Source: Gammaproteobacteria bacterium
Lineage (GTDB): Bacteria > Pseudomonadota > Gammaproteobacteria > GCA-002705445 > GCA-002716945
NCBI GenBank assembly: GCA_965656575.1
Contig: CBFHLA010000001.1
Coordinates: forward strand, 1 to 62,432
Direction: 5' to 3'
Length of the DNA: 62,432 nucleotides
How positions within the stretch are numbered: the stretch's first letter is position 1; each line of letters opens with the position of its first letter. Shown here one piece after another: positions 2,264 to 62,432 of this stretch. The position numbers and the translations under genes are program-made. A model generated the notes under the pieces. It was not told the DNA's origin and did no database searches. It saw only the letters and a program-made list of their open reading frames with translations.

Positions 2264-2264
2264 G

Positions 2265-3191: not shown

Positions 3192-3218
3192 TAAAAACGC
3201 GTTTAAAAAATATATAAT

Positions 3219-3878: not shown

Positions 3879-3880
3879 TT

Positions 3881-4556: not shown

Positions 4557-4738
4557 AATAACCCAGCTTTTATATCTATTCTTGCCATATCTGATTGATC
4601 TAATTTAGCCCACCATTCTTCATTCATATCTTTCAAACGCACACCTTCTTTTGTGTCACCACAATAATTATTTATACATTCATAAACCGTGCATGTTGAT
4701 TCATCAATAAACGAGTTAACAGATTTAAGATATTTCAT
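4553..4738 (-). CDS. hypothetical protein (61 aa), the only plausible minus-strand gene
   Basis: It exactly fills the gap between 4556 and the AT-rich region 4739-4831. Its stop overlaps the stop of the convergent + gene (TTAA). Composition is ordinary (W-, C- and D/E-containing). Confidence 0.45.
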   Translation of the reverse strand: MKYLKSVNSFIDESTCTVYECINNYCGDTKEGVRLKDMNEEWWAKLDQSDMARIDIKAGLF

Positions 4739-4831: not shown

Positions 4832-5134
4832 ATGGCAAAATTAAAAAAAATAAACTCTGATTTACAAGATAAAGACCCTCAGCTTTCAGAAGAACAACTT
4901 AAAGAACGCAGAGAAGAAATTACAAAATTTTACAAAGATAATATTCCGCATTTAACTGTTCAAGCAGAATATGAAAATTTACTTGCTGAAATAGATAAAG
5001 CTAGAGCAGAGAGATTGCAAGCTCAAATTTTTATGGCTCAAGCTACAGCACAACAAAATGCAAGTGAAGGACCATCTGATGAAGAAAAAGCTTTTAAAGA
5101 AGCAATGGAAAAAGCTTCAAAAAATATTGAATAA
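4832..5134 (+). CDS. hypothetical coiled-coil protein (100 aa)
   Basis: Charged heptad-like sequence; first gene after the 4739-4831 intergenic region. Confidence 0.55.
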   Translation: MAKLKKINSDLQDKDPQLSEEQLKERREEITKFYKDNIPHLTVQAEYENLLAEIDKARAERLQAQIFMAQATAQQNASEGPSDEEKAFKEAMEKASKNIE

Positions 5135-5135
5135 A

Positions 5136-9151: not shown

Positions 9152-9383
9152 AAGACATAAAGCTGAAAGCAAAACAGCAAGTGGAATTATTATTCCGGAA
9201 ATAGCACAGAAAAAAGAGTTTAAAGGAACTGTTGTTGGAGTTGGTGCAGAAGTTGAAGAAATAAACATAGGTGATGTTGTACAATATGCAGAGCACGCAA
9301 TGCCTACACCAATGGAACATGAAGGTGAGGAACATTTACTACTCCAAGCTGGTGATGTTTTTGCTATTTTAAGATATGAGTAG
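9108..9383 (+). CDS. groES: GroES-like co-chaperonin (Cpn10), 91 aa
   Basis: Collinear with GroES by eye: IIPVGKRLLIKR (cf. PLxDRVLVK), ESKTASGIIIPE mobile-loop region, GTVVGVG, IGDVV, and a GDVFAIL C-terminal strand. Confidence 0.8.
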   Translation: MKQIIIPVGKRLLIKRHKAESKTASGIIIPEIAQKKEFKGTVVGVGAEVEEINIGDVVQYAEHAMPTPMEHEGEEHLLLQAGDVFAILRYE

Positions 9384-45025: not shown

Positions 45026-45056
45026 ACCTTAAAAATTAGTGATTCTCCTTAATTAT

Positions 45057-45068
45057 TTGTATATTAAT
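45057..45068 (+). promoter_or_regulatory. recurrent motif TTGTATATTAAT (copy 6)
   Basis: Lies 23 nt upstream of ATG 45080. Confidence 0.35.
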
Positions 45069-45079
45069 AATATAATATT

Positions 45080-46966
45080 ATGAGTGTGAAAGTAAACAAA
45101 ATAAGTTTAAAACAGGAAGGTGGGCAAATGATGCCTGAACAATCTGGGATGCAGCAGCAAGCGCAGCAACCACAGGTTGATCCTCAAGTAATGGAAATAT
45201 CTCAAGCCATTGCATCTTCTGTACAAGAAGGTCAGAATCCACAAGAAGTCGTGATGGCTCTTGTTCAAAATCAAGTAGATCAGCAAGTTATAGCTCAAGC
45301 TTTGATGATGGTGGGTATGGCAGAAGAAGATATTATTACTTTATTTGAACAAATTGAAAGAAGCACTCAACCTTCATCACCAGAGGAAGTAAATGCAAAT
45401 CCTGAATTACTTTCAAGAAATGAAGATATAATAGAACGAGAAGAACAAGAAGCTGCTCAACAAAATCAAATGATGGGTATGGCTAAATCTGGTATAGAAA
45501 TTAAACCAGAAAATAAAGGAAAATTTACAGCATGGGCAAAGAAACGTGGCATGACTGTTTCTGAAGCTGCAAACAAAGTAATGTCAAACAAAGACAGATA
45601 TACAACTGATATTGTTAAAATGGCAAACTTTGCTAAAAATGCAGCAGGCTGGAATAAAGAATATGGTGGGGATGTAAATAATCCTATGGGTTATGTAATG
45701 AGAAGCATGGCTAATTTTCAAAGTGGTGGACAACCAAAAGGTCAAATGATAAATGGTGTCTTTATTCCAGATGAAAGTGAAATAGCAAATGATGCATTTA
45801 ACAAAAATTTGCAAAGACAGGATCAATATTATTTTTCAGATCCACAATATGCAGTATTGCCAATGATGCCACCTCCAACAGTGAATCCGTTATTTGATAT
45901 TATTAATACTGTGGGATCTGCGATTGGAGATGTTAAAGGTGAGTTTAGTAACTTTGGAGATAAAGTAGATCAGTATAAAGCTGACAAATATAAATATTAT
46001 GATGTAGATCTTGATTTTAGTGATGTAAGATCAGAAGAAAACATTAATAAATTTAAAGATTGGGCAACTGCTGAAGTACAAGAATTACAATATCAAACTC
46101 AAGAGAATAAAGCAAAAGCTGACAAACAAGTATCTGACTTGACAGTAGCAAAACCAACATTTGAGCAATGGTTACAGCAAAATCCAAACATTACAAATAT
46201 GGATACTGCAAGAAGTATGTTTGACAGTATATATAATAAAATGTTTGGTGGATCTGTTTATAGTGCACAAATGGGTTTTGAAACACCGGGTTTTAATCCT
46301 GATGCAGATGGTGATGGTATACCAGATGTCATAGATATAGACGGTGGAGAGGGTACAGGTGTACCTGCTTATGGAACAGTTAATAGACCTAACCTTGAAG
46401 ATATGTACAATGAGATTAACTTTGAACCAGAAGTTAATGTTAATAACCCAATATCTGGTACAATAGATAGATTGGGTGATAACCCATATATAAGAGCCGG
46501 TGCTTCTATATTAGGAGCAGCATCAGATTTTGCTGGTTTATATAATAGAATTGCAGATCAAAAAACTTATTTGGAAGCTCAAGATCAACTTGAAGAAAGA
46601 TCTGGTGCTGATTATAAGTATGGAACAAAAATGTCAGGACCAAGAACTAGAGGTACTTATGATGCTTTATCTGGACAATTAGGTAGTGAAGCAGATAGAG
46701 TAGCGGGATACTACATGAATTTTGCAGGCAGCCCTTATAGTTTTTCTGGAACTGCAAAAAAAGGTGGAGAGTTTAAACCACACATGATGTTTGATCCTAA
46801 AACAGGTAAAGGTTATAAAGCTAATGTAACGGCTGACCATGAGAGAATGGCTGAGATGGGGTACTTACATAAAGATGAAATGCAACAAGGTGGTGAAGTA
46901 TTAGAATTATCACAAGATATGATAGCACAACTAATTGCAGCTGGAGCTGACATAGAAATATTATAA
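45080..46966 (+). CDS. large virion/ejection-type protein (628 aa)
   Basis: Q-rich N-terminus. Calcium-binding-like DADGDGIPDVIDIDGGEG (46301-46354). KKGGEF motif at 46757-46774. Confidence 0.6.
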   Translation: MSVKVNKISLKQEGGQMMPEQSGMQQQAQQPQVDPQVMEISQAIASSVQEGQNPQEVVMALVQNQVDQQVIAQALMMVGMAEEDIITLFEQIERSTQPSSPEEVNANPELLSRNEDIIEREEQEAAQQNQMMGMAKSGIEIKPENKGKFTAWAKKRGMTVSEAANKVMSNKDRYTTDIVKMANFAKNAAGWNKEYGGDVNNPMGYVMRSMANFQSGGQPKGQMINGVFIPDESEIANDAFNKNLQRQDQYYFSDPQYAVLPMMPPPTVNPLFDIINTVGSAIGDVKGEFSNFGDKVDQYKADKYKYYDVDLDFSDVRSEENINKFKDWATAEVQELQYQTQENKAKADKQVSDLTVAKPTFEQWLQQNPNITNMDTARSMFDSIYNKMFGGSVYSAQMGFETPGFNPDADGDGIPDVIDIDGGEGTGVPAYGTVNRPNLEDMYNEINFEPEVNVNNPISGTIDRLGDNPYIRAGASILGAASDFAGLYNRIADQKTYLEAQDQLEERSGADYKYGTKMSGPRTRGTYDALSGQLGSEADRVAGYYMNFAGSPYSFSGTAKKGGEFKPHMMFDPKTGKGYKANVTADHERMAEMGYLHKDEMQQGGEVLELSQDMIAQLIAAGADIEIL

Positions 46967-46968
46967 TT

Positions 46969-49761
46969 ATGGCAAAAGTTAAGATAAATAAATTACCAAA
47001 AGGTTTTGAATTAGTTGATGGTAAAGTAAAAAAGAAAGCTATCAAAAGAGATGGTGGTCTTGTTACTGGTGATCAAGCTGATTATGGTTTAGTAACATCT
47101 CCTCAAGATTACTATGGTGGTACAAGTTTTAATGATGAAAATGATCAATCTGTAAGATATAGTTTATCCAGTGTACCTAGAGAAGATGCTAATATTGAAG
47201 CAGAAGGTGGAGAAACTGTTTTAACTGATTTAAATGGCAATGGTCAATTTGGTCTTTATAATATTACAGGTCCTAGACATTCACAAGGTGGTGTTCCTAT
47301 GTACTTACCCGAGCAGTCCTTTATATTTTCTGATACTAATGCAATGAAGATGGATAGATCTGAGTTAGCAGAGTTTGGTATTGAATCTAGAAAGAAAAAG
47401 ACACCAGCAGATGTATCTAAAAAATTTAAGTTAAATGAATACTTAGCGCAAATAAATGATCAGTATGCAGATGAAATATCTACAAGAAGTGCTGACATGA
47501 TGTTAAGTAAAAATATGAAAAGTTTATCAAAGCTTGCTTTTGGACAAGAACTAAAAAAAGGTTTTGAAGATGGTGTGCCATTAGCTGCATATCCATATTT
47601 ACAAGAACAGGGTATTGACCCAATTGAATTCACAGCTCAAATAGAAGAACAATCTAGACAACAAGCTGAACTTAATTTTATTGCATCATTGCCACCAGAG
47701 CAACAAGATCAAATTTTGCGTTTACAAGCTATGATGCAAAATATTGAAAATCCTGATGCAGGTTTAACACAAGATTCATCACAAGAGTTGGCATTGACAA
47801 ACTCACAAGGAGCACCTAATGAAGCAGATGTAGCAATTGCAGATCAAGAACTTACAGCTACACTTAAAAAAGGAGGAGAGTTATTAAAAGCTCAAGCAGG
47901 TACTGAAGTAAGAATACCAGGTTCTGATCAACCACAGGATGGAGAAACATATAATGACTATTATAAGAGAATTGGTGATAAAGCATCTGTAAGGGAGGAT
48001 GCTCAAGGGTCATATGTATATGATTCAGAGTTAGGTGTATTTTTACCTACACAATATAAAGAACAAAGTAGACAAGAAGAAACCCAACAAACAACTGCTG
48101 AAAATGCTGATGGTAAAATTACAAGAGCTCAAGCAGAAGAAATAAATCCTCTTCCAATAGGACATTCTAAAAGAGAGTTGTTTACTGAAAAATTAATGAA
48201 AGGATATCAATTAGTTGAATCTAGAGATGAGGTAAATGGAAAAACAAATTACAAATTAATTGAACCTGCAGCACCAAGTTTATTTGAAGATTTTAGTGAA
48301 TACAAACAGCAAAGTATTGATGTACAAGGTAGAGGTGAAATACCAATTACAGATGAAGTTACAAATGAGTTGATAGAAGTTTATGAAGGATTTCCTGATA
48401 ATGCTAGGATCAGAAAAGGTATTTACTCAGGTCAAAATAGACCTGAAGTTCAAACTTCAATGGGTACTGATTCAAACTCATTTGGTGCAGATCTTAATAC
48501 AGATATAGCAGAAAAAGATTTTATGTTAAGATGGGGAGATGCTGCAAGTAAAGTTCCTGGTTTTGATTATAATATGCCACAAGGAAGATGGAGTGGTAAC
48601 AATCCTTTAGATGCACAAGCAAAAGCTTATAAAAAACAATGGACTGCTATGCAAAATGCAATGCAAGAAGTTGAAAATGAATTTGCAAAGAAAAATAATT
48701 TAGAACCTAGAGTATTATTTCCAGGTGATAGACCCGGTAGTAGTGTAGATGGAAAACTTGGTTTAGATACATTTAACAAAGCTAGAAGTTATATTAGAAC
48801 TAAAGATCAAGAAATTTTAGAAGAAGAAGTTAAAGATACACTAGAACCAAGAGATCCAAATACTTTTGAGACACCAAAGCAAGAAAAACCACAATGGTGG
48901 TGGCAAGATCTTAATAACCTTGCAACACAAGCTTCTTTAGAAAATCCATTGTTCTTACCAAACATCCCTAAAGTACCTAATGAAGAAATTGATTATGTAT
49001 TGGATGATTGGACAGGTAGAGCAAATATGACTAATGCAGCATTAAATACAATGGCTCAGAATCTTAGGGCTTTTGGTAAAGGTAAAGTTGCAGGATCTAA
49101 TTTATTTGGTAAAGCTGTTGGTCAACTTGCAAAAGATGTTGGTGCAGTAAATACAAACAATATACGAATTATGAACAGTGTTGCATTGCCACAAGCACAG
49201 CTTAATTTAAGAACTGGCGTTGCAAATGCACAAGCATATAAAGATGAGTATGATAGTACAGTTACGGCCTTACAAAGATATGTTGATTTTGAAAATTGGG
49301 ATAAACAAAAAACAAATGAGCTTTATAATCAAGCTATAACTAATAGAGCTAATACATTTAATATGAATCAGCTTAAAGATATTTACAAAGCCGACCCATC
49401 TGCAGGTGGTATTGAATCTCAAAAGTATGCCAAACCATATGAAGTAGATACGGATGATAGAACCGATCAACAAAAAAGGATGGATATGTATATTCAAACA
49501 AGAGATAGGTTAATAGAACAATATCCAGATATGCCTGAAGAAGATATAGAAAACCGTGTAGATTATTTGTTAACAGGTCAAACTGGTTCACGCAAAAAGA
49601 GAAGTCAAAATTATAATGATTTTGAAAGCGGTAGTAATCCCAATGCTTCTGGTTTAACTAGTAATGCACCTTCTGTAAGAACAGATGGATTAACAGGAAG
49701 AAAAGGAAAAGAATTAAAACCATTTGCTTATCCATTTTATACGGGTAAGATGGGTATGTAA
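46969..49761 (+). CDS. large virion/ejection-type protein (930 aa)
   Basis: ORF track. KKGGEL motif at 47866-47883. No catalytic motif recognised. Confidence 0.6.
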   Translation: MAKVKINKLPKGFELVDGKVKKKAIKRDGGLVTGDQADYGLVTSPQDYYGGTSFNDENDQSVRYSLSSVPREDANIEAEGGETVLTDLNGNGQFGLYNITGPRHSQGGVPMYLPEQSFIFSDTNAMKMDRSELAEFGIESRKKKTPADVSKKFKLNEYLAQINDQYADEISTRSADMMLSKNMKSLSKLAFGQELKKGFEDGVPLAAYPYLQEQGIDPIEFTAQIEEQSRQQAELNFIASLPPEQQDQILRLQAMMQNIENPDAGLTQDSSQELALTNSQGAPNEADVAIADQELTATLKKGGELLKAQAGTEVRIPGSDQPQDGETYNDYYKRIGDKASVREDAQGSYVYDSELGVFLPTQYKEQSRQEETQQTTAENADGKITRAQAEEINPLPIGHSKRELFTEKLMKGYQLVESRDEVNGKTNYKLIEPAAPSLFEDFSEYKQQSIDVQGRGEIPITDEVTNELIEVYEGFPDNARIRKGIYSGQNRPEVQTSMGTDSNSFGADLNTDIAEKDFMLRWGDAASKVPGFDYNMPQGRWSGNNPLDAQAKAYKKQWTAMQNAMQEVENEFAKKNNLEPRVLFPGDRPGSSVDGKLGLDTFNKARSYIRTKDQEILEEEVKDTLEPRDPNTFETPKQEKPQWWWQDLNNLATQASLENPLFLPNIPKVPNEEIDYVLDDWTGRANMTNAALNTMAQNLRAFGKGKVAGSNLFGKAVGQLAKDVGAVNTNNIRIMNSVALPQAQLNLRTGVANAQAYKDEYDSTVTALQRYVDFENWDKQKTNELYNQAITNRANTFNMNQLKDIYKADPSAGGIESQKYAKPYEVDTDDRTDQQKRMDMYIQTRDRLIEQYPDMPEEDIENRVDYLLTGQTGSRKKRSQNYNDFESGSNPNASGLTSNAPSVRTDGLTGRKGKELKPFAYPFYTGKMGM

Positions 49762-49820
49762 ACATTAAAGGTTTATTTATATTAGTTGGTAAACTTTATA
49801 AATATTAGTAAATTTGAATT

Positions 49821-52800
49821 ATGGCAACGTATATAAAAGGAGAGAAGAATTTTTACCCGGACATTAAACCTTTTACCCCTGATTATAAGTTTCTTAATGC
49901 TACATTAGATGCAAGAGAAGCAAAATATCAAGCGGGTTGGCAGGCCACTAATGATCTGTATAGTAGAATATATTCTGATTTGTCTAGAGAAGACACTAAA
50001 GATTTTCAAAAACACTTTATTGAAAAGTTAGCGCCAGAAATGCAAAAGATTTCAGGTCTTGATTTATCTATTGCCAAAAATGTAGATGCAGCTAAAGGTG
50101 TATTTGCTCCTTTTTTTGAAGATGATCTTGTAGTAAAAGACATGGTTTATACTTCAACATATAAACAACAGATGCGATATGCTGATCAACTTGCACAAAG
50201 CCCTATACAAGAAGTAAGAGAAAAATATAATCCTATTGCTACAGAAGCAATGAACTATAGATTGCAAGAGTTTCAAAATGCATCTGCAGGTCAAGCATTA
50301 GGAATGAGGCTTCCGGAGTTTGTTGAAGATCCTGATATACCAACTTTAGGTCAAAAGTATCTTCAAGATCTTGGTTATAAGTTTGAAGAGTATGACAGAC
50401 TTCAAGACACTTCAGGACCTGACGGTATACCAGGAACAAAAGATGATACACCTAATAAATGGATTATTACTGAAAAAGGTGGTAAACGTGTTGAGATAGA
50501 TGCTTATAATCAAATTATGTCTGGTTTATATGATGACCCTAGAGTTACTAAGTGGTATAATACAAAAGCATATGTAGATTCTAAAAGATATGCAACTCAA
50601 GCTTCTCAAGATGGAAGTATTTCAGAGCAACAAGCTATGAATGATTGGGCTAAAGAACAAGTTTTTAGACTTGATGAACTTAATAGATCAAAAATTAACA
50701 ATACAAAAGAAGAAATAAAATCAACTAATGATGTTGTAGTAAAATGGGATAACTTTTCTTCTAATAAAGGTTTAACGCCTGCAGAGCAACAGCATGTTGA
50801 AAAAGAAAAATCATATGCTGAACAATTACAAGCAGATTTAGAAAAAAGAATTGGTGTTCAAAAAATAGTTGAATCACCAGATATTGATGATCAAGCCCTT
50901 ATGTCAAAAGCATATTCAATGTTATCTAATTATTATATGGATCAGGATATGCGTAGAGCGGCTTATAATTTTAGTAATTTAGAAAGATCATTAAAAATTA
51001 AAGAAGATCCGTTTACTCTTCAAGATGAAAAATACAAATATGAGCTTCAGAAAATTAGAGTAAAAGCTTGGTATGATAAAGAACTAGAAGATATTAAGCA
51101 AGAAGATAGGCTAGAGCTAGCAGAATTTGAAAGAATAGCTGATATAGAAAAGTTACAGCTTGAGGGTAAAATAGCTGGTCAAGATGCTTTAGCCAATGTA
51201 AGAGGTCAGTCTGGATTTGATTATTCGTCTCCTTTTTCTTCAACGTATCAAATGAAAGATGGTAAGTTTGTGAATGTAGATCCTATAAAAGCAAATAATA
51301 TAGCAATTGCTGAAAAAGAATCACAAATTACTTCTGAAAAAGTAGGTTTGTTGGGAGATATGTTATCTGTTAGATATCAAAATCCTGATAATAAATATAG
51401 TATAAAGCTTACAAAAGAAGACGGAACACAGTTTGATTTTACAGGTACACCATTAGAAATATCAAATGAGTTAAAAAAGAAAAAAAGAATTGAAGAAGAT
51501 GGTGTAGTTATTGAAACAGATCAATTTCAATACTATCAAGATATTGTAAAACTATTTGATGAACAATCAAAGTGGTTTGAAAATAGAGATAAAGTTTATC
51601 AAGAAAAAACTCCTGAGTATCTTCAACCTGGAGGTAGATATGATAAAATTTATAATCAATTATTTAGACAAGATCCTCAAGACTATGAAAAGTCAGGTTT
51701 AGTTTTAAGAGAGGATTTATTTAATAAAACAGTTGCAGAAAATGCAGCAACATTTTATGACGCAGGAAAAAATGCAGCAACAGCTTTACAAGAAAGTGAT
51801 AATACCTTTGATGAACTTGTAAAGCAAGGGTATCCATTACCATATACAGAAGAGAATGGTGTAAAAAAATTCATGAATAAAAAAGAATACATGGATCTTT
51901 TTAGAGAGGAAGCTAAAGCAGGTAAGATAAAAAACTTTGACCCTTCTGGTGTAAACAAAGCAAGTGATGGAGATGATGATCCAAATTGGAAAGATGGGGA
52001 ATTTAAAACTATGCCGGGTGCGGCTGGCGGTCTTCCAACATTTATATATGTACCAGAAGCATGGGATTATGATGCTATGGATGGTAAGTCATCATACATT
52101 TGGGACAAGATAAAAGAATACATTGTTAAAGAACAAAACGTTGTTCCATCTAAAACCTTTATTTCATTAGATAGGGGATTGGGTTCAGCTAGCACTACAG
52201 ATATAGGTTTTGTTGCTACAGAAACTGTACGTACAGATAATAATCCTGAAAAAGGAACTAGAGGAAATGAATTACTTGCTACATCTATTTATCAACAACA
52301 AGTATCTGGTAAGGCTGGTGGTTTAGGTACTCAAGTTATTATGAGGCCTGATGATACAAGTGTTATAGAAAATTTAAATATAGGTGAAGGTGTTCAAAAA
52401 ACTGATACTCAAAAAGCCTCTGAATTTTTACTAAATATTTTACAGGGATCTCAATCAAAAACTGGTGAATTTAGTTTAACTTATTTTCCAAATTTAGGAC
52501 CAAGAATATTTGATGATGAAGGTGAAGAAGTTAGAACTCCAACTGCTGCATATCAATATTCTGATTTTAGTCCTGAGTTAATTAAGACTTTAACTAATAG
52601 TAATAATTTACCAGAAAACGTAAGTCTGGAAGCAATGAAAAAAGTATTGGGTAACGGTGTAATGGTTGTATTTGATAGAAATACAGATGTAAATCCAGGA
52701 GCATATGATAATTCAAGACAATCTTTTATTGAAAAACAAATAGATTTATCTCCAAATCAAAGCTATACTTATACAGGAAAAGGAAGTATGTTTAGTCCAG

Positions 52801-53159
52801 GAGAAGCAACTATATTTAAAACAAAACCCAATGAGTTTGTTGTACGTTATCAACTTAATGAATTTGACCCTAATTCTACAGATATAAATAAACAATATAA
52901 AACATATGCTCAAAATGAAGTTGTGTTATCATATGATGAAAGCTTAGATTTTTCACAAGATTTAAATAAAAGATTTAGTGAAATTATGGATGCATTGGAT
53001 AGACAGAATGTTCAAAATAATCTTATGGAAATGCAATCTAGAGCTGCAAATTTAACTGAAGAAAGTTGGATTAATGAATATATGAGAAAAGTTCCTGGTG
53101 CTACAAAAGAAAATGCGAAATTAGCATATGAGCAGACCATGGATAATCTTAAAAAATAA
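49821..53159 (+). CDS. large virion/ejection-type protein (1112 aa)
   Basis: ORF track; charged, coiled-coil-rich; no motif recognised. Confidence 0.6.
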   Translation: MATYIKGEKNFYPDIKPFTPDYKFLNATLDAREAKYQAGWQATNDLYSRIYSDLSREDTKDFQKHFIEKLAPEMQKISGLDLSIAKNVDAAKGVFAPFFEDDLVVKDMVYTSTYKQQMRYADQLAQSPIQEVREKYNPIATEAMNYRLQEFQNASAGQALGMRLPEFVEDPDIPTLGQKYLQDLGYKFEEYDRLQDTSGPDGIPGTKDDTPNKWIITEKGGKRVEIDAYNQIMSGLYDDPRVTKWYNTKAYVDSKRYATQASQDGSISEQQAMNDWAKEQVFRLDELNRSKINNTKEEIKSTNDVVVKWDNFSSNKGLTPAEQQHVEKEKSYAEQLQADLEKRIGVQKIVESPDIDDQALMSKAYSMLSNYYMDQDMRRAAYNFSNLERSLKIKEDPFTLQDEKYKYELQKIRVKAWYDKELEDIKQEDRLELAEFERIADIEKLQLEGKIAGQDALANVRGQSGFDYSSPFSSTYQMKDGKFVNVDPIKANNIAIAEKESQITSEKVGLLGDMLSVRYQNPDNKYSIKLTKEDGTQFDFTGTPLEISNELKKKKRIEEDGVVIETDQFQYYQDIVKLFDEQSKWFENRDKVYQEKTPEYLQPGGRYDKIYNQLFRQDPQDYEKSGLVLREDLFNKTVAENAATFYDAGKNAATALQESDNTFDELVKQGYPLPYTEENGVKKFMNKKEYMDLFREEAKAGKIKNFDPSGVNKASDGDDDPNWKDGEFKTMPGAAGGLPTFIYVPEAWDYDAMDGKSSYIWDKIKEYIVKEQNVVPSKTFISLDRGLGSASTTDIGFVATETVRTDNNPEKGTRGNELLATSIYQQQVSGKAGGLGTQVIMRPDDTSVIENLNIGEGVQKTDTQKASEFLLNILQGSQSKTGEFSLTYFPNLGPRIFDDEGEEVRTPTAAYQYSDFSPELIKTLTNSNNLPENVSLEAMKKVLGNGVMVVFDRNTDVNPGAYDNSRQSFIEKQIDLSPNQSYTYTGKGSMFSPGEATIFKTKPNEFVVRYQLNEFDPNSTDINKQYKTYAQNEVVLSYDESLDFSQDLNKRFSEIMDALDRQNVQNNLMEMQSRAANLTEESWINEYMRKVPGATKENAKLAYEQTMDNLKK

Positions 53160-53170
53160 ACTAGCATAAT

Positions 53171-56100
53171 ATGTCAGAGTTAACAAACAATTTACCAAAT
53201 CCGGATTTTGATTTGCAACAACGAATTGTACAAGATTCAGTTGACATGAATCCTATTGATACATCTGTTCCTTACCAATCTATAGATGATATACTACCTG
53301 AATTGAATAACCCTATAGATGATCAGTACATGAAGCAAATTGATATGTACAGAACTGAAATGGATAAAGTAGGTCCTAATGCTATTGGTAATATGTTTAT
53401 GGATAAACTAACTCCTGGTTTATCAACTAGTACAGAACCGCAAAGAAATTTATCTATTGCTGAGCAACTTCAGCAAAAGTTAAAAGAACCTTTGGTATCA
53501 GATGCAGGCACGTTACCTAACCCAATATGGAGTAATGTAAGACAAATTAATTTTGATAGACAATATAATAGTGATGCTTTTGCAGATATAGGTTTTGCTC
53601 CTTATGCGGACATGGATGCTGTATTTAATAAAAACATGACTGGTTATGATGGGTTCCAAAGAGGTTTTAAACAATTTGGCAATCTATTTTACACAGGTTT
53701 TGCATCTAGTTATAGATCTATTGCGGATATATTTGATGGTGATAGTTATTGGGAAGATCCAGATTTAACTTCAGCACAAGAAATGGAAGATGCCATGAGA
53801 ATTGGTGGTAGTACAGACGGCAGCTTAGGTGGTTGGTTTGGTAACCTTGGTTTAAACTTTGGTTATACAGCAGGTATTGTAGCATCTATTGCCGCTGAAG
53901 AAGCAATATTAGCAACTGGTGCTGCCCTTGCAGCTATACCAACTGGTGGTGGTAGTTTAGCTGCATTTATTGCTGCACAAGCAAGATTTATACCCAGAAT
54001 AAAAAAAGCTGTTGATTTTACAGTTAGGGGAACTACATTTGGTAGAGGTGCAAAAGCATCTTATGATTTTGTAAAACAAATATCTCAAGTAGAAAGAGCA
54101 AGAGATTTATTTAATGCTGCTCAACTTGGTAGAGGTATGAATACTGTATTTAGAACAATTGCTCCAGAAACTTTATATGCAATTAAAAATTGGAAGACTG
54201 CAAAAAATACTGCACAAAATACAATCAATCTTGCTAAGATTTCAAATATGTTTGGTGCATTCTATAGAGATTTTAGAATGGTTAATGCTTCATTGTCTGA
54301 GTCCAAAATGGAAGCAGGTATGGTTTACAATCAAGTTTTAAATAATGGTTTAGCTGAAGCAAATTATAAAAATCAAGGTGGGGGTGTAACAGAACAGCAG
54401 ACTAAAGATATAATGATTAAAGCTGCTGAGGCATCCTTTAAAGCTCAGATGGCAAATTTTGCTGTTATATATGCTTCTAACAGAATTGTTTTAAAAAATG
54501 CATTTGGTGGCTGGAGAAGACAAGTTACTAACTCAAACAGAATTCTACGTAAAGATGCATTTACAGCAGTAAAGGGAAGTAAATATTTAATAAAGAGAAT
54601 ACCACAAGAACTTAAATTAGCTTTTAATAGAGCCGGTTACAAAGGAGCTGCTAAAGTTATGGGTACTCAGATGTTAAGATATGGTGCTGCTAATTTAGCG
54701 GAAGGTGCACAAGAAATATCTCAAGAAGCAATTTCTGCTGCAACTGTTGGTTACTATAGTTCATTGTTAAGAGATCCTTTAAGTGGTGGCCCATCAACTC
54801 TTGCGGGTTATGTTGGTCAATCAACTTCTAATCTTGCATCAAAAGAAGGCTTAAGTGTTTTTCTTTCAGGATTTTTAATGGGTGGTTTAGCTGGTCCTTA
54901 TCAGCAAGTTTTGTTTCAGGGTTTACCTGCTATTGGTAGGAGTGCATATGCAAAAGCAAACACAAAATTTGGTGATGGTACACAATCAAACTACGCCAAA
55001 GAATATAGTCAAAGAAGAGAACAAGTATTAGATGATATTGTAAAACAAATTAATGAGCGTGGTGAAATGATGAAACAAGATTTAGAATCTGTGCTTTCAC
55101 CATCTCAATTTCAAGCTATATTACAAAAACAAAATTTTTCTGAGCAAAGCATTGCATTTGCAGATAATGATAAATATGATTTTGATAATGCACAGTTTGC
55201 TGCACAGTTTTTTAATTTGTATTCAGCATATGAAAGAGGCTCTATAAAATTTGCAAGAGAAAGTTATGTTGAGTTTAGTAAAATGTCAGATAAAGATCTT
55301 GCAGAAGCATTTAATCCAAAAGAGTTTGGAAAACCTGAGAAGGTAAGAAAACGTATTCAAAAACAAATTAATTTGATAGATGAATATGGTGAGACTTTTG
55401 CTAATAAATTACCTAAAGTATTTGATAAAACTTTTAACTATGAAAATTTAACTGCTGGTAGTCCAGAGTATTTAAACTTACAAAGAGAAGAACAAGCATA
55501 TAAACATAATAAAATGCTTTATATGTTTACTAATGAAGCTTATAAAAATGCTGTAGAAAGACAAGCAGCTATAGAGACATCATTAGAAACAGAACCTTTG
55601 TTTGCTAAACAAGCAAGTTCTGATATAAGAATACTATATAACAAAGAAAGTATAGACCAAGAGTTAACCTTGCTAGATGCCGAGATTAAAGCTGCGGAAG
55701 AAGCAGGAGAATCTAAAACAGTAATTAACAAAAAGAAAAATAAAAGGAAAGCTTTACAGAAGTATGCTGATGTTATTAATGATCCTAAAAATATAACTAA
55801 AAAAGGAAACATAAGCAGGAGACAAGGTACAGTAAATAAAGTTAGATCTGCATTTAAAAACTATATACAAGTTCTTGCAGAAAATAATTCTGACTTTGTT
55901 AATCAAGATTTAGTTGATGATGCAGTTGCAAAAATTGTAGATCATAGCGCACTTAGATCTGATGCAGCATCATTTTCTAGGTCTATTGATTTTATGACTA
56001 ATCCTACTAAGCAACAAGAAATTGCCGATAGATCAAAACAATACTATGAATGGTTGTATAAAAATAGAGATGCAGTAGTAAAAGAAGCAGCCGCTAGGTA

Positions 56101-59100
56101 TTTAGATACACAAAAAAAGAATGAACTAATTAATTTGTTATATGAAAAGGATGTTGCTATAGAGCCTACCTTAGTTAGGAAATATTTTGCTGGTGAAATA
56201 ACAGAAAAAGATTTACTTGCTTTATTACTACAAGGAAACAAAGGAGCATTTTTTATTGATGGTAAATTACTTAATGATAGATTAGAACAAGATGCTAAAC
56301 TGATTAAAGAGGTAGCAAGTGTACTTGCCGGATTTGTTCAATTAGATCAACAAATTAAAGCACAAGAAGAAAAAGAATCTCCACAAGCAGTTCAGGCAGA
56401 AACTATTTTAGATGTTGAAGATAAATTAGAAGATGCAGGTATTCAAATAAATATTGGAGACATAAATACTTCAAAAACTTTAAAGTCTATTTTAGAAAAA
56501 GAATACCGTAAATATAGAGCTAACACAAAAGATAACATTTTAACTCCAGAGCAATGGAGAAAGACAACAAATGCAACTAACATTGTTGCTGCGTTATCCG
56601 CATTAAAAAGAATTTGGGCTACAGGATATGATACCATTGTAGTTCAAAATGGTCAAGAAACAGCTGTTAAAGTTAAACCTACACAACAAGAGATAGAAAG
56701 TGAAATTGGTTTTCAGAAGTTTTTAGATAGTAGAGAAGCAATTGAAAATCCTTTAGTACAATCTATAGTAAATGACTATGGATTAAATATGGGTATTTTT
56801 TCTAGATCTAATACAGGTCAAGCTGCTGTTCAACCTATTAGTGGTATGGACGGTGTAGCATTTAAGGGTGTAAGAAGATCATCTGCACAAGGAGAGTTTG
56901 TAGAAATTGTTGATGCAAACGGTAATTCTCTTTCTAATGAAATGTTAGAAATAATCAATAGACCTTTGGGTGCTACTTTTAGTTCTATGGAAGAAGCTAA
57001 AGTTGCATTTGATACCCTTGAAAGAGAGTATTCAGATGGTACAACATTTAGATTTGATGGTATGTCATTAAGTAAAGGTATATCAGTATTTAGTAAAGTA
57101 GCTATAGATGATCATCCCGTTGGTACTGAGTTCATAATTAATAGTAATCCTAAGCATGCATCTAGAGGTACAGTATCTTTAGTACCTGCAGATAGATGGA
57201 CAAATAATTTCAATGCTAGAAAAGATGCTGCTATTTATGAAAGTGAATTAGATTTTTCTAAAAGATTTGAGACAGAACAAATTAGTTTTACAGTATTATC
57301 TGCTGATGCCCCTAAAGTTTCTACACAAGATCCTGTTGTAATATATTCACCAAGAGCATTAGATAGAGAGACAGGTGAAAAACAACTTGCACTTATTGGT
57401 GCATCTTTAACAGAAGATCAATTATTAAATGGTGTTATAATTAATATTTTACCAAATGATAAATCATATGAGGATCCTTTTATAATTAATGGTATTAGTA
57501 ATCCATATATAAGAAGAAAGAATGAAAGGGTAACATTACAAGTTGCTATTGCTGATCCTGTTTTAAGAAATGATTTAAATCAAAAACTTACAGATGCAAA
57601 CCTACCAACTATACCAGAAAATGGAGAAATAGGTTATATACCCGCTGAGTCAATTATATTTAAAGATGATAAAGGAAATCAAATCCTTCCATCACAAATG
57701 ACCCCTGAATTTGCATCAAATGTTTTTGTACCACAGAAAGGTAAAACTATTGAGCAAACTTTAGAAGAGGCTAAAATTAATTTTGCTAAACAAGATTTAT
57801 TATTAAATACTGTTGAAACATTAATAGGTGAAGAACAAAATGTAATTAAGATTGGTCAATTACCTGAAGGTTTTCAAATAAGAAACTTTAGTGGTTACCC
57901 TGATTATGATGGTAGCAATCCTTTAATACCATTATCTGAATTACCTTATGCAGCTAATGATAGAGGTGATGTATTAATATTTGATATTACAAGAGCAGCT
58001 GATGGTTCAATGATTGATTATGAAACATACTCTAACATAACAGATCCAGATCAGAAAGCAGCATTAGTAGCAGAAGTTGAAGAAGGCTTAAATTTACCTA
58101 TTGGAGGTCAAAGCATTAGTTTGTTTGATAAGATGATGGGACCTGATACTTTTAACTATACCGAAAGATATCAGTATGTAGTTAGACAACCTAATGGTAC
58201 TTATACTCTAGCTACAGCAAAAACTACAGGATTATCTAAAGATGTATTAGAAGGTGTAATGCTTGATATGAAAACTCAAGCAGAAAAAACTAGACAAGAA
58301 AATTTAGTTACTTCTAAAAACATCAGCAAATACCCCGGTAAAAAAGTTGGTGATTATATAAATGCTGATTATAATACTGTATTTAATAATGATACAAATA
58401 AAAAGTTTAGGGTTAACATGCCTAAAGGATTTAATTTGAATATTACAGTAGATCCTTGGGGTAAAATTAGAGGAGAAATTTATCAAAATGGTGTAGGGCG
58501 AGTTGGTAAATATCAATATTTATATGAAGCAGATTTAAATAAAGAAGGTTCTAATATTTCTAAATTAGAACAATTACTAGCTAAACTTACAGAGCAGAGT
58601 GCGGCTAAAGATATAAATGTTACAATAAACAATTTTACTACCAGTGTACCATTAAATGCATCTGTTAATGAGATGTTAGATAGTTTATCTACAAAACTAT
58701 CACCTCAAATTAGAAGAGGCGGTTATTTTTATTTAAATGCTGATTCTGCTATGGTGCAAGCTGCCATAGATAAAGCTGCAAATGTTAACAGACCCGATAA
58801 TGTAGAACCAAAAAAATCCATAAGTCAGGGTCAGAAAGCTAAGATAGATAATCAAGAAGCTGATATATTAAGTAGATTAGCAGAAGATCAAGTTGACGCA
58901 AGAGATGAGGTTGCTGCTGAAGCTGATAGAGCACGTGCAGGTGAAGTATCTGATGTTGTTTGGGAAGGATTTATAAATGATCCAACAACAGTTCAGAAAC
59001 AACTGATAGATTCTATAGCACAGAAACTTATAGCTGGTGTACCTCTTACAGAAAGAGAGCAAGCAATTAGACAAGAAAGATCCATTGCACCACAGATAGA

Positions 59101-62100
59101 AGAATATTTAAAGGGTCAAATGGCCGAAGAGCAAAAAAAATCAATTGATTTAACTGCTCTTGCTGCAACACCAATTGATGTTATTAATTCTAAGATTAAA
59201 GAGTTAGAAGAACAAATAGTAGCTGAAGTAGGTTGGAAAAACAAAAGAAAAGCTCTTAAGGAAAATAAAGAATATCAAAGTTTACTACAAGAAAGAGAAA
59301 GACTTTTAAAACCAGGGAATAAAGTTTTACCAGCAGGTTATTCTGTAAGTGATTTAGAAAGTTTAGAAGACTTTTTACTTTGGGCACAAGATAACTTACC
59401 TGAGTTTATTACTGTAGCTGATATAAAACAATTAGGTAATAACCTTAAAGCAGGTGGTAAAAGAGTTGGTGCATTTGTTTTAGACTTAAATGGTTTAGCT
59501 GGTGGTTTAACTACAGGTGGTACGATATATACAGGTGCAACAAATCCTTTTAGATATCATGAAGCTTTCCATGGTGTATACAGAATGCTACTTTCACCAG
59601 AAGAGCAAAAGCGTTTGCTTGCAATTGCTAAGAAAGAAAAGAGAGCACAATTAAGAAAAGAAGGTAAGAGTCTTCAAAAAGAGTTAATTAAATTTAGAAA
59701 CTCTGCGGATACTTATACAAATATGACTCAAGAACAACTTGAGAGAGAGTATTATGAAGAGTATATGGCGGATCAGTTTGAGTTATTTAAAGCTAATCCT
59801 AAAGATACTAAAACAAACAGTTCAATAAAATCATTCTTTAATAGAATAATTGAATGGATTAAAGCTGTGTTTGAATCATACTCAAAAACAGAGTTGCAAA
59901 CTTTGTTTGAAAATATTGATGCTGGTAAATATGCAAATGCTACTGTTGTAGCAAATGACTTTACTATGCAGGCAGGACCGGCTATTACAATTGCGAATGC
60001 ATTGTTGCCATATGAAGCTGTACAAGTAAATGGCTCTAAAGGAAGATTATATTTAGATTCTAATATTGCTAATAATCTAGCTTTAACTATTGCTGCCAAC
60101 TATATTAATAGAAGAAAGGATCCAAGGTTTTATCTTAATGATGAAGGTAAACAAAAAACAAATGAAGAGATTATAGAAGAACTGCTAAATGACTTTTCAG
60201 ATTTATATGATCCTAATAATCCTGCAAACCAAAAGTTCTTAGCAACAGATACACCAACTAATCAATTAAGATATGATAAGTTAGTTCAGATATATCAAGC
60301 AATAAATTTTGATTTATTTGCTGATGTAAAAAACCAACCTATCTATAAGGCTGTTATGGATGTGCTTGATATTATAGACGTTCAGAAACAACAGCAAGAG
60401 TTATCAGAAGATGATTATGAAAATCAAGATGGTCTTAGAAATGTAACACAGTTTGGTAAAGAAGCTTATATGAATGGTGGTTTTAGTTCACTACCTACAT
60501 ATATTAGAAGTTACTTGGCAACTATAACTAAAGAACAAACTGATATTTTTGGTAATGTAGAACTTACAGAAGGGGAACCTTTGATTGTACCTATAGATGT
60601 ATATAGTGTCTATAATGGAATATTAAAATCTGTAAAATCAAAAGAAGATCCTTTAGAGATTTTACAGGCAATGTATTTATTTTCTCAAGACAATCCTAAT
60701 ACTAAAGGTGTTGTTAAAAAGATGTTTGAGGATATAGGAATACCTTACGGTGTTGATGTTAGTCAAATGACTTTACCTGAAAACATTAAAGATCCTTTAT
60801 TATTTAATCAGATAACAAAAGCATTTACTAACTTTAGAGTAGAGTGGTTATTCCAACAAATGGATGAATCAGGAAATGTAATAACATATTCTGCTGCAGA
60901 AAGGGATGATATACACACCCAAATAGATCTTTGGGGTCAAGCATATATAACATTAAGTCAACAGTGGTTACTTGATAAAAGAAAAAAGAAAGAAGCTACA
61001 GATTCTATCAAAGCTTTTAGAGCTCAATTATTAGGAACAGAGACTATTGAAGATGCTGCTATGCAAAATTTGTCTGTAAGCATAGCTCAAAATCTTTTTG
61101 ATAGTACAGGTATAAAACTTAGTCCGTTATATATAAAGTATAGTATTATTAGATCTAGAGGGGCAGGATCATCTAATCAACAATTGTTATTAGACTTTAA
61201 TGAAACATCAGATCCAGTTACAGCAGAAGATCTTTATTTTATAAATGACTTGATAGTCAAAGATGTAGATCTATATTCTGAATATGGTGCTACATCTAAG
61301 ATTAGAAAAATGGCAATCAATAATGCTGTATTTGATGAGTCAATTGGATTATCAGTATTTACTAATGTAAATGGTGATATGGTTAATGCACACCAGAAAC
61401 CCACATTTAATCTTAAAAGAGTTGCAGCACTTAATAAAATAAGTGAAAGACAAAAATTACTTAACTCAGTATTTTTAAGTTCTAATTACCTATTAAACAA
61501 TCCTGCTTTTGAAAGCATGGCTAATAGTAACCTTTTATCTATTAAAAGAATTTCAGGTACTAAATTAGTTGAAACGCTAGATAGAGAGTCTGATTATGAC
61601 GCGTTTATAGAAGGTATCTTAAATACAACTGAGTATGGTAGTTATACACCGAAGCAATTTATAACAAACCTTATTAACAATTATACGTTAGACTTTAATC
61701 CTAAAAACAATAAATTAAAGAGTGAGGTTACAATTGAAACTGAGTCAGGTGGAACAGAGATTGTAGCTACAGCACCTTTACTTATTAGAGTATTAGAAGC
61801 ATCTAACACTGGTGATTTAGCATCACTACCGGTTATAAAAGCTGTATCTGGTAAGGACGCAGCTATTACTACAGAAGTGTTAAACGTTGTATATGACTCT
61901 ATAGAAAATGAGTACAACCGTATCAAAAGAGAAAATAATGATGAAACAAAAACTCTTGATGATATTGTTGGATATAATGTAGGAGAAGTTCAAAGAGCTA
62001 ATACTTTATTTAATAGTGAGGCATTTTTCTTAGGAGATAATGTACAAGTTAAATCACAACTAGAAATGTCTGCAATGAATCAAGATCAAGACATTTCATT

Positions 62101-62432
62101 TGATCAAGCCGTAAAACTTGCAGGTTTTTCTAAATCTCAGTTTTTAGATAAAATAATAAGAACAAGTTTAGAAGCTAAGTATAATAGATTTGAAGCTCTT
62201 ATAGAACAATATGAAATAAATGATTTAATTAACAATGACCTTAAGAAAGGTATTGTATTAGATAAAAAGGGTGAGGCAAGAGCTTTATCTATTAAGGCTG
62301 CTGAAGCACTTAATTTAAGAGCTGATCAGAGATATAACTTAAGACAAGTATTCTTTAATGACTATATAAATACTAAATCACTAAATGAATTACTATTAGG
62401 AGATCAAGCTAGAATACTCAAAAATAGTATAG
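53171..62432 (+). CDS. giant protein, 5' partial (more than 3087 codons, runs off the window): candidate polyvalent/ejected virion protein with zincin-like metallopeptidase motif
   Basis: Not in the ORF track because there is no in-window stop. I hand-translated 53171-61020 and 62342-62431 without meeting a stop. No other long + ORF is listed here. Gly/Ala-rich hydrophobic segments at ~53821-53990 and ~54848-54940. HEAFH at 59558-59572. Confidence 0.85.
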   Translation, partial: MSELTNNLPNPDFDLQQRIVQDSVDMNPIDTSVPYQSIDDILPELNNPIDDQYMKQIDMYRTEMDKVGPNAIGNMFMDKLTPGLSTSTEPQRNLSIAEQLQQKLKEPLVSDAGTLPNPIWSNVRQINFDRQYNSDAFADIGFAPYADMDAVFNKNMTGYDGFQRGFKQFGNLFYTGFASSYRSIADIFDGDSYWEDPDLTSAQEMEDAMRIGGSTDGSLGGWFGNLGLNFGYTAGIVASIAAEEAILATGAALAAIPTGGGSLAAFIAAQARFIPRIKKAVDFTVRGTTFGRGAKASYDFVKQISQVERARDLFNAAQLGRGMNTVFRTIAPETLYAIKNWKTAKNTAQNTINLAKISNMFGAFYRDFRMVNASLSESKMEAGMVYNQVLNNGLAEANYKNQGGGVTEQQTKDIMIKAAEASFKAQMANFAVIYASNRIVLKNAFGGWRRQVTNSNRILRKDAFTAVKGSKYLIKRIPQELKLAFNRAGYKGAAKVMGTQMLRYGAANLAEGAQEISQEAISAATVGYYSSLLRDPLSGGPSTLAGYVGQSTSNLASKEGLSVFLSGFLMGGLAGPYQQVLFQGLPAIGRSAYAKANTKFGDGTQSNYAKEYSQRREQVLDDIVKQINERGEMMKQDLESVLSPSQFQAILQKQNFSEQSIAFADNDKYDFDNAQFAAQFFNLYSAYERGSIKFARESYVEFSKMSDKDLAEAFNPKEFGKPEKVRKRIQKQINLIDEYGETFANKLPKVFDKTFNYENLTAGSPEYLNLQREEQAYKHNKMLYMFTNEAYKNAVERQAAIETSLETEPLFAKQASSDIRILYNKESIDQELTLLDAEIKAAEEAGESKTVINKKKNKRKALQKYADVINDPKNITKKGNISRRQGTVNKVRSAFKNYIQVLAENNSDFVNQDLVDDAVAKIVDHSALRSDAASFSRSIDFMTNPTKQQEIADRSKQYYEWLYKNRDAVVKEAAARYLDTQKKNELINLLYEKDVAIEPTLVRKYFAGEITEKDLLALLLQGNKGAFFIDGKLLNDRLEQDAKLIKEVASVLAGFVQLDQQIKAQEEKESPQAVQAETILDVEDKLEDAGIQINIGDINTSKTLKSILEKEYRKYRANTKDNILTPEQWRKTTNATNIVAALSALKRIWATGYDTIVVQNGQETAVKVKPTQQEIESEIGFQKFLDSREAIENPLVQSIVNDYGLNMGIFSRSNTGQAAVQPISGMDGVAFKGVRRSSAQGEFVEIVDANGNSLSNEMLEIINRPLGATFSSMEEAKVAFDTLEREYSDGTTFRFDGMSLSKGISVFSKVAIDDHPVGTEFIINSNPKHASRGTVSLVPADRWTNNFNARKDAAIYESELDFSKRFETEQISFTVLSADAPKVSTQDPVVIYSPRALDRETGEKQLALIGASLTEDQLLNGVIINILPNDKSYEDPFIINGISNPYIRRKNERVTLQVAIADPVLRNDLNQKLTDANLPTIPENGEIGYIPAESIIFKDDKGNQILPSQMTPEFASNVFVPQKGKTIEQTLEEAKINFAKQDLLLNTVETLIGEEQNVIKIGQLPEGFQIRNFSGYPDYDGSNPLIPLSELPYAANDRGDVLIFDITRAADGSMIDYETYSNITDPDQKAALVAEVEEGLNLPIGGQSISLFDKMMGPDTFNYTERYQYVVRQPNGTYTLATAKTTGLSKDVLEGVMLDMKTQAEKTRQENLVTSKNISKYPGKKVGDYINADYNTVFNNDTNKKFRVNMPKGFNLNITVDPWGKIRGEIYQNGVGRVGKYQYLYEADLNKEGSNISKLEQLLAKLTEQSAAKDINVTINNFTTSVPLNASVNEMLDSLSTKLSPQIRRGGYFYLNADSAMVQAAIDKAANVNRPDNVEPKKSISQGQKAKIDNQEADILSRLAEDQVDARDEVAAEADRARAGEVSDVVWEGFINDPTTVQKQLIDSIAQKLIAGVPLTEREQAIRQERSIAPQIEEYLKGQMAEEQKKSIDLTALAATPIDVINSKIKELEEQIVAEVGWKNKRKALKENKEYQSLLQERERLLKPGNKVLPAGYSVSDLESLEDFLLWAQDNLPEFITVADIKQLGNNLKAGGKRVGAFVLDLNGLAGGLTTGGTIYTGATNPFRYHEAFHGVYRMLLSPEEQKRLLAIAKKEKRAQLRKEGKSLQKELIKFRNSADTYTNMTQEQLEREYYEEYMADQFELFKANPKDTKTNSSIKSFFNRIIEWIKAVFESYSKTELQTLFENIDAGKYANATVVANDFTMQAGPAITIANALLPYEAVQVNGSKGRLYLDSNIANNLALTIAANYINRRKDPRFYLNDEGKQKTNEEIIEELLNDFSDLYDPNNPANQKFLATDTPTNQLRYDKLVQIYQAINFDLFADVKNQPIYKAVMDVLDIIDVQKQQQELSEDDYENQDGLRNVTQFGKEAYMNGGFSSLPTYIRSYLATITKEQTDIFGNVELTEGEPLIVPIDVYSVYNGILKSVKSKEDPLEILQAMYLFSQDNPNTKGVVKKMFEDIGIPYGVDVSQMTLPENIKDPLLFNQITKAFTNFRVEWLFQQMDESGNVITYSAAERDDIHTQIDLWGQAYITLSQQWLLDKRKKKEATDSIKAFRAQLLGTETIEDAAMQNLSVSIAQNLFDSTGIKLSPLYIKYSIIRSRGAGSSNQQLLLDFNETSDPVTAEDLYFINDLIVKDVDLYSEYGATSKIRKMAINNAVFDESIGLSVFTNVNGDMVNAHQKPTFNLKRVAALNKISERQKLLNSVFLSSNYLLNNPAFESMANSNLLSIKRISGTKLVETLDRESDYDAFIEGILNTTEYGSYTPKQFITNLINNYTLDFNPKNNKLKSEVTIETESGGTEIVATAPLLIRVLEASNTGDLASLPVIKAVSGKDAAITTEVLNVVYDSIENEYNRIKRENNDETKTLDDIVGYNVGEVQRANTLFNSEAFFLGDNVQVKSQLEMSAMNQDQDISFDQAVKLAGFSKSQFLDKIIRTSLEAKYNRFEALIEQYEINDLINNDLKKGIVLDKKGEARALSIKAAEALNLRADQRYNLRQVFFNDYINTKSLNELLLGDQARILKNSI
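59558..59790 (+). other. zincin-like signature HEAFH ... EREYYEEYMADQFE inside the giant ORF
   Basis: In-frame HExxH preceded by GGTIYTGATNPFRY. About 60 residues downstream comes an EExMADxF segment that could supply the third (Glu) ligand. Confidence 0.45.

Follow-up and report, generated by a model that had tools for sequence, protein, structure and literature searches.

A distant marine crAss-like phage with a predicted zincin-like metallopeptidase domain in its giant virion RNA polymerase polyprotein

The giant open reading frame and its HExxH domain

The DNA analysed here, a stretch of 62,432 bp referred to below as the window, is the entire contig CBFHLA010000001.1, one of 93 contigs in a 934-kb assembly filed under Gammaproteobacteria (GCA_965656575.1). 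Its 3' end is occupied by a giant open reading frame (ORF; 53171-62431, + strand) of 3,087 codons, which is free of stops and still open where the contig ends. A twin of 4,727 amino acids, P0002, lies on another contig and differs by one mismatch over the 3,087 residues of the window ORF; the remainder of the giant ORF was absent from the other contigs of the assembly. A preliminary description, made from the sequence alone, had proposed that this ORF contains a zincin-like metallopeptidase signature consisting of an HExxH motif and a downstream acidic helix. Translation of 53171-62431 recovered that peptide in frame (...KRVGAFVLDLNGLAGGLTTGGTIYTGATNPFRYHEAFHGVYRMLLSPEEQKRLL...QEQLEREYYEEYMADQFELFK), although the start given for it, 59467, is one base out of frame and the codons begin at 59468. 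The parts of the ORF on which the following analysis draws are listed below, with the basis of each assignment in brackets.

53171..62431, + strand: giant ORF, crAss-like virion RNA polymerase polyprotein, truncated by the contig end
59348..59956, + strand: predicted zincin-like (gluzincin-type) metallopeptidase domain, residues ~2060-2262 (conservation, AlphaFold helical core, alignment to crAss zincin domains)
59462..59536, + strand: RVGAFVLDL ... GTIYTG, candidate zincin beta-strands (conservation)
59558..59572, + strand: HEAFH, with predicted zinc ligands H2130 and H2134 and predicted general base E2131 (invariance; model helix 79-91)
59597..59728, + strand: helical insert that links the HExxH helix to the Glu helix, ~45 residues (moderately conserved; model helices 94-115 and 119-127)
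59756..59779, + strand: EEYMADQF, in which E2197 (or E2196) is predicted to be the third zinc ligand and D2201 to orient a His (conservation; model helix 138-159)
59828..59872, + strand: KSFFNRIIEWIKAVF helix (best-supported block of similarity to crAss zincin domains)
59957..62431, + strand: conserved core continuing to the two-barrel RNA polymerase module (catalytic ADFDID past the contig end; collinear with phi14:2 gp66)

HEAFH, at residues 2130-2134, is the sole HExxH of the window ORF (3,087 residues) and likewise of P0002 (4,727 residues), and EEYMAD (residues 2196-2201, 59756-59773) follows it after 66 residues. Because the giant protein is poor in His (8 in 3,087 residues and 13 in 4,727), the number of HExxH motifs expected by chance at this composition is very low, namely 0.0015 and 0.0026 for the two lengths, and the earlier estimate of a several-percent chance of random occurrence was far too high.

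Relatives of the giant protein are numerous. A word-indexed search found 343 of them, nearly all 4,400-4,950 residues long and from metagenomes, at least one being from Tara Oceans, and an exhaustive profile search yielded at least 937 representatives of 50%-identity clusters. For the analysis of conservation we used the best 150 of the 937 representatives, whose identity to the window across the HExxH domain is 25-60%. H2130, E2131 and H2134 are each retained in 149 of these 150, both E2196 and E2197 in 146 of 146, and D2201, F2203 and A2200 in 143, 142 and 139 of 146, respectively; G2100, F2102 and G2117, in the segments that precede the HExxH, are at least 96% conserved. The H, E, H, EE and D2201 positions are among the most conserved of the whole 4,727-residue protein, in which no other His reaches 93% conservation (103 full-length representatives). 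The HExxH motif is thus genuine and not a product of chance, and the expectation that it would be kept among homologues, together with the weight that had been placed on the downstream acidic helix, is borne out. At the level of sequence, E2197...D2201 reads ExxxD, as in the third-ligand helix of gluzincins, which is ExxxD in thermolysin and ExxxE in lethal factor.

The identity of the remaining protein can be read from the full-length relatives. P0002 contains SGADFDIDKLY beyond the 3' end of the window, with ADFDID at residues 3616-3621, and G3615, D3617, D3619 and D3621 are each 99% conserved in the 103 full-length representatives. DFDxD is the metal-binding motif of crAss-like virion RNA polymerases (vRNAPs; Drobysheva et al., bioRxiv 10.1101/2020.03.07.982082). 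By blastp, residues 3573-4005 of the giant protein match 1317-1757 of gp66 of Cellulophaga phage phi14:2 (E=2e-13) and residues 3380-3630 match 1247-1446 of crAssphage gp44 (E=6e-13). The C-terminal 1,214 residues of a close relative, L009 (14527-18171), were used as a tblastn query and matched phi14:2 g066, annotated 'Catalytic RNA polymerase subunit' (E=2e-8), as well as RNA polymerase (RNAP) genes in crAssphage and in numerous crAss-like phages. Judged by these similarities, the giant ORF is a crAss-like two-barrel vRNAP polyprotein, of which the contig stops ~530 codons short of the polymerase catalytic site. The HExxH domain lies upstream of the polymerase module in the same ORF, with 1,487 residues between HExxH and ADFDID.

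Across the 937 representatives, the HExxH domain is found at residues ~1,600-2,400 of proteins of 4,000-6,000 residues. Among the 103 full-length representatives, residues ~2040-4250 are common to 98% and residues 100-1000 to ~70%, whereas residues 1000-2000 and the tail past ~4300 are variable; the universal core opens with the HExxH domain. The variable C-terminal tails of homologues carry AlkB (PF13532), ART-PolyVal (PF18760), DUF7831 or NADAR domains (homologues P0022, P0033 and P0100). This variety fits the 'polyvalent protein' pattern (Iyer et al. 2017, PMC5512222), and the polyvalent context suggested in the preliminary description is thereby upheld. A feature search of the ESM Atlas returned clusters of LPD23, LPD1 and ART-PolyVal with scores of 0.92-0.94, which fits the same context and is taken as a lead only.

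Some further observations concern the family. The tail of P0002 (~4400-4650) matches 'DprA-like / molybdenum carrier' proteins of crAss-like phages with E down to 5e-9, and the tails of the family look like swappable effector-like heads on a polymerase polyprotein. The relative L009 (L009:3881-18171, IMGVR_UViG_3300046169_000081) is 99% identical to the window over the HExxH domain, and its giant ORF is broken into 3,449 and 1,214 codons by a gap of ~300 nt and a change of frame, for which an assembly error, a real frameshift and an insertion are all candidates. In the N-terminal part of the giant ORF, the block 54299-54883 (residues ~377-571) holds a second near-invariant polar cluster (E377, E381, N429, E511-G512-x-Q514-E515, Q518, Y528, G567 and G571), which is present in ~70% of the family, matches nothing in Pfam or PHROGs and may represent a further catalytic module or a pore-forming one.

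Relationship to the predicted zincin domains of crAss-like phages, polyvalent proteins and N4

The closest counterparts of the HExxH domain appear to be in crAss-like phages. In p-crAssphage (Carjivirus communis), gp45 (BK010471; 1,957 amino acids) is annotated as 'putative RNAP associated protein fused to zincin protease', and the gene that it directly precedes, gp44, encodes the RNAP. Yutin et al. (2018) are said to have introduced the crAss zincin annotation. According to Drobysheva et al. (bioRxiv 10.1101/2020.03.07.982082), a zincin-like protease is present in the orthologues of gp65, and some phages have gp65, gp66 and gp67 joined in one polyprotein, which probably undergoes cleavage.

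The single HExxH of crAssphage gp45 is HESLH at 1743, 214 residues before the C-terminus, and is followed by EEFLVE at 1800 and then by ...KTLFSRLLEVIADMLG...; phi14:2 gp65 has HEIMH at 245, then ...NVHEFISEV... and ...SMLNQIWEFIKRLVG..., and in the window protein the block after EEYMAD reads ...KSFFNRIIEWIKAVFE.... The order of blocks is shared between the crAss zincin domain (gp45, gp65) and the domain described here: strand-like segments, HExxH, an insert, EExxx[E/D] and an F..R..E.I helix. The RVGAFVLDL and GTIYTG segments align to 'vG.Y ... I.l' of the gp45 and gp65 domains, and the KSFFNRIIEWIKAVF helix, whose counterpart in crAssphage gp45 is TLFSRLLEVIADML, is the high-confidence segment of the profile alignments. 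Compared with the crAss domains, that of the window has D instead of E at position i+4 and a longer insert, the spacing from H to EE being 66 residues here and 57 in crAssphage gp45.

Their surroundings are alike as well. In each case the domain belongs to a virion-associated giant protein beside a two-barrel vRNAP, and the distance from HExxH to DFDxD is 1,647 residues in crAssphage gp45 plus gp44 and 1,487 here, with the domain directly upstream of the polymerase in both. In the marine protein, however, the domain is internal to one chain of 4,727 residues, whereas it stands at the C-terminus of crAssphage gp45 and at the N-terminus of phi14:2 gp65, and the gene for the phi14:2 domain is located downstream of the polymerase rather than upstream. 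As a separate observation, two crAss-like relatives of gp45 (P0346 and P0347; 2,534-2,657 amino acids) contain the zincin domain (HEQLH) followed by ART-PolyVal, so a zincin-bearing protein of gut crAss-like phages can likewise carry a polyvalent-type effector.

Profiles were compared with hhalign using reversed-sequence controls; shuffled-column controls (scores of 9-17) looked clean but are not stringent enough when profiles are helical. Domains of the gp65 type and the gp45 type aligned to each other with P=8e-10 (reversed control 0.03). A profile of 211 sequences of the window family against the merged gp45 and gp65 domains gave P=2e-4 and an hhalign probability of 46% over 221 columns, with the strand, HExxH, EExxx[DE] and F..R..E.I blocks all in register. 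The merged crAss profile in turn aligned with 25 MPTase-PolyVal (PF18818) domains at P=2.5e-4 (reversed control 0.13), and both crAss counterparts have an SprT-like zincin family as a sub-threshold Pfam match (E=0.014 and 0.055). A tblastn search with residues 1901-2500 against 50,697 phage records returned no match. The alignment statistics alone are only suggestive; the link to the crAss zincin domain is carried by the register of the predicted catalytic residues and by the conserved position next to the polymerase.

Structure prediction was performed twice with AlphaFold2, using 16 sequences in run 1 (predicted local distance difference test score, pLDDT, 63) and 71 sequences, including 14 relatives at ~30% identity, in run 2 (pLDDT 71). 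Both models have a confident helical core, which in run 2 reaches a pLDDT of 80-98 (residues 2128-2250) and comprises the HExxH helix (model residues 79-91, pLDDT 85-92), the EExxAD helix (138-159, pLDDT >90) and the FFNRIIEWIK helix (168-187). The larger alignment bettered this core but not the N-terminal subdomain, and the region of low confidence is made up of the 75 residues before the HExxH helix, where the beta-sheet of a zincin sits and which contain the conserved RVGAFVLDL and GTIYTG segments, whose candidate strand conformation the models do not show. In a Foldseek search of BFVD, eight of the ten top matches were large proteins from crAss-like phages (20-25% identity, E=8.6e-3 at best), and the crAssphage 'RNAP associated protein fused to zincin protease' appeared at rank 44. 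Weak structural matches to lethal factor and to PPEPs recurred at 15-22% identity, and Foldseek against the PDB gave no E below 1 for either model. None of these values is significant alone, but all point in the same direction. Among solved gluzincins, lethal factor and PPEP (M34) and thermolysin (M4) have the HExxH and, on a helix downstream of it, a Glu that is followed four positions on by an acidic residue. Searches of Pfam and PHROGs with the window ORF and with P0002 returned just two matches, DUF5856 (E=0.009-0.024) and DUF1451, which fall in a helical region and were judged to be due to chance.

Similar domains have been described in two other contexts. Metallopeptidases (MPTases) are the commonest domain of polyvalent proteins, have variable inserts between their two helices and are predicted to process the polyvalent polypeptides (Iyer et al. 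2017, PMC5512222). MPTase-PolyVal (PF18818), an ArdC-type zincin, shares with the window domain the HExxH followed by a Y..EE..A[E/D]....F helix, which reads EELVAE there and EEYMAD here, and it also occurs in giant multi-domain proteins that are delivered with invading DNA and have partner domains such as ART-PolyVal. The two motifs are separated by roughly 30 residues in PF18818 members as opposed to 66 here, and the PF18818 model had no match at E up to 10 among 16 members of the window family.

The second context is the vRNAP of phage N4, gp50, in which an HExxH (C1/MPTase) domain (~2124-2448) is also fused to a giant RNA polymerase that is packaged in the capsid and ejected. The local pattern ..TIY..(strand) HExxH ... 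NEFMAW of N4 resembles ..TIYTG.. HEAFH ... EEYMAD here, and Iyer et al. (2017, PMC5512222) used HHpred to place the N4 domain among the zincins. The N4 polymerase is, however, T7-like and precedes its HExxH domain, whereas here a two-barrel polymerase follows it, and the alignment of the window profile with a single N4 sequence (gp50 ~2030-2550, no N4-family profile) covered eight irrelevant columns. Any link to N4 is thus one of analogy or very remote homology.

Proposed function and alternative explanations

Residues ~2060-2260 of the giant ORF are probably a divergent zincin-like (gluzincin-type) metallopeptidase, the counterpart of the RNAP-associated 'zincin protease' of crAss-like phages, and HEAFH most likely marks this already predicted domain in a very divergent marine relative. 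H2130 and H2134, together with E2197 on the helix 66 residues downstream, would bind zinc, E2131 would serve as general base and activate water, and D2201 may orient a histidine. In the marine lineage, an upstream virion protein, the peptidase domain, the two-barrel RNAP and a variable effector-like tail appear to be fused into a single chain of ~4,700 residues, which, by analogy with phi14:2, would be packaged into the capsid and leave it together with the DNA on ejection. Because the boundary between gp45 and gp44 of crAssphage lies within one chain here, the peptidase would be well placed to separate or activate the polymerase. Its context suggests that it may cut the polyprotein, in cis or in trans, and thereby release or activate the polymerase after the ejection of a partly unfolded cargo. 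Polyprotein processing was suggested by Iyer et al. (PMC5512222) and Drobysheva et al. (bioRxiv 10.1101/2020.03.07.982082) for their own systems. KKGGE(F/L), a motif of the neighbouring giant proteins and a possible cleavage site, is absent from the giant ORF.

A number of findings weigh against this assignment. The HExxH domain has no Pfam, PHROG or PDB-sequence match, even at permissive thresholds, and searches of PDB sequences with the single domain, the profile and the whole protein returned nothing meaningful. The N-terminal beta-sheet of zincins is absent from both AlphaFold models, in which the corresponding region has a pLDDT <50 or is helix. In the comparison with the merged crAss profile, the score of 36.2 stands against reversed controls of ~30 (P ~2e-3), and that of the window family with the 25 PF18818 members is not significant (P=0.2). 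An alignment with the phi14:2 gp65 family alone (P=2.3e-4) had a reversed control of equal score and is not taken as independent evidence. The peptidase nature of all crAss-like and N4 HExxH domains is so far predicted only, and the 2026 structure paper on N4 leaves the nature of the HExxH-bearing C1 subdomain open (PMC13434306). The interpretation given in the preliminary description is supported as a whole; for the zincin fold that it put forward, the profile and structure matches are weak and the beta-sheet subdomain was not recovered.

The main rival to any peptidase reading is a non-catalytic metal site that regulates the polymerase. More broadly, we regard it as improbable that the HExxH is the metal site of a domain other than a peptidase, be it a structural or regulatory helical domain docked on the polymerase and controlling it, or a different class of HExxH enzyme such as the alpha-ketoglutarate/HExxH hydroxylases. 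The downstream ExxxD helix, said to be a gluzincin hallmark, is invariant here, the weak fold matches with sequence identity are peptidases (lethal factor, PPEPs), and the crAss counterparts lead both to SprT-like zincins, below threshold, and to MPTase-PolyVal, with a clean reversed control. Hydroxylase or radical-SAM structures are likewise missing from the top 50 fold matches of either model, in searches that included no targeted comparison and do not exclude such a fold. What speaks for a domain of this type is that the confident part of both models is all-helical and lacks the zincin sheet, that no significant fold or profile match to a characterised peptidase was found, that an HExxH also occurs in radical-SAM-associated enzymes, and that the HExxH-bearing C-terminal domain of N4 binds the RNAP, with C1 packing against it (PMC13434306). 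At the other extreme, a chance HExxH without function could appeal to the missing match to any curated family, but it is exceedingly improbable given an expectation of 0.0015-0.0026, the invariance of the motif across 150 representatives down to 25% identity and the presence of a second invariant motif; we consider it refuted by conservation.

If the domain is an active zincin peptidase, its target may also be in the host, for instance the peptide stems of peptidoglycan or proteins of the envelope while the phage penetrates, or, once ejection has occurred, proteins of defence or transcription, a possibility that we take seriously but consider somewhat unlikely. Digestion of peptidoglycan is one option that has been raised for the crAss zincin (Drobysheva et al., bioRxiv 10.1101/2020.03.07.982082), the homologous polypeptides carry the host-directed modules ART-PolyVal, AlkB and NADAR, and polyvalent proteins are treated as effectors of the early phase (Iyer et al. 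2017, PMC5512222). Against a host target, the domain is situated at the junction that corresponds to the gp45/gp44 gene boundary in crAssphage, which would fit processing, a separate endolysin is already encoded in the window (5058-6056), and the present data indicate no host substrate. The earlier suggestion of an enzymatic effector delivered with the DNA is thus plausible, with the processing of the phage's own vRNAP polyprotein at least as likely as an attack on the host. Polyprotein processing or polymerase activation is the most likely role of the predicted peptidase; next in order comes an attack on envelope or defence proteins of the host.

It can be speculated further that the domain acts in cis as a processing peptidase, seated where the ejection half of the single 4.7k-residue chain meets the polymerase half, and that its cut after ejection switches the polymerase on; in this specific form the proposal is rather unlikely. 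Were it true, it would point to a general protease-gated activation of ejected phage polymerases, because an HExxH domain accompanies two kinds of virion polymerase that are not related to each other, the T7-like one of N4 and the two-barrel one of crAss-like phages, and the very large uncultured marine clade (937 cluster representatives) would provide the simplest one-polypeptide system for testing such activation.

Zincin-like domains on virion polymerases and polyvalent proteins were already predicted in 2017-2018, with the peptidase prediction dating from 2018 for crAss-like phages and from 2017 for N4, and polyprotein fusion is also known. The result is a known annotation extended to a distant relative, not a new kind of system. 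What is new is a marine family too divergent for any curated library to recognise, an HExxH domain whose only ties to its crAss counterpart are the register of the motifs, the position, and scores from profiles and structures that are marginal, and five residues singled out for mutagenesis by their conservation. An identity is given in this way to a family of giant ORFs (at least 937 clusters at 50% identity, nearly all of 4,000-6,000 residues and of metagenomic origin) that Pfam and PHROGs leave blank, and the fused architecture makes self-processing directly testable.

Other features of the contig

The remainder of the window encodes the structural module of a tailed phage, with tail fibres, an endolysin, TerL, a portal, a major capsid protein and a run of very large ORFs. 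Four of these genes are located as follows.

5058-6056: endolysin
9376-11568: TerL
11584-14343: portal
15831-17450: major capsid protein

The closest matches of TerL are crAss-like phages at ~26% identity. On account of the structural module, these TerL matches and the polymerase homology, the contig is assigned to a distant marine crAss-like phage. The bin that holds it is a small genome assembly (934 kb, 81.5% complete, GC ~0.32), and the window contig contains only structural and cargo genes. As flanking host genes are missing from it, the contig resembles less a prophage than a phage that was co-binned or was infecting the host.

An ORF of 2,157 residues (35919-42392) is 25-27% identical to several phage virion structural proteins and is not the polymerase; its relatives are found in Leptolyngbya phage Lbo-JY46, Cellulophaga phages phi4:1 and phi17:2, Flavobacterium psychrophilum phages and an epsilon-crAss phage. 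The depletion of His is extreme in the ORFs between it and the giant ORF (42392-53159), where those of 877, 628, 930 and 1,112 residues hold 4, 3, 2 and 2 His, respectively, whereas the 2,157-residue ORF has 26. Such depletion may be characteristic of cargo proteins that are ejected or unfolded.

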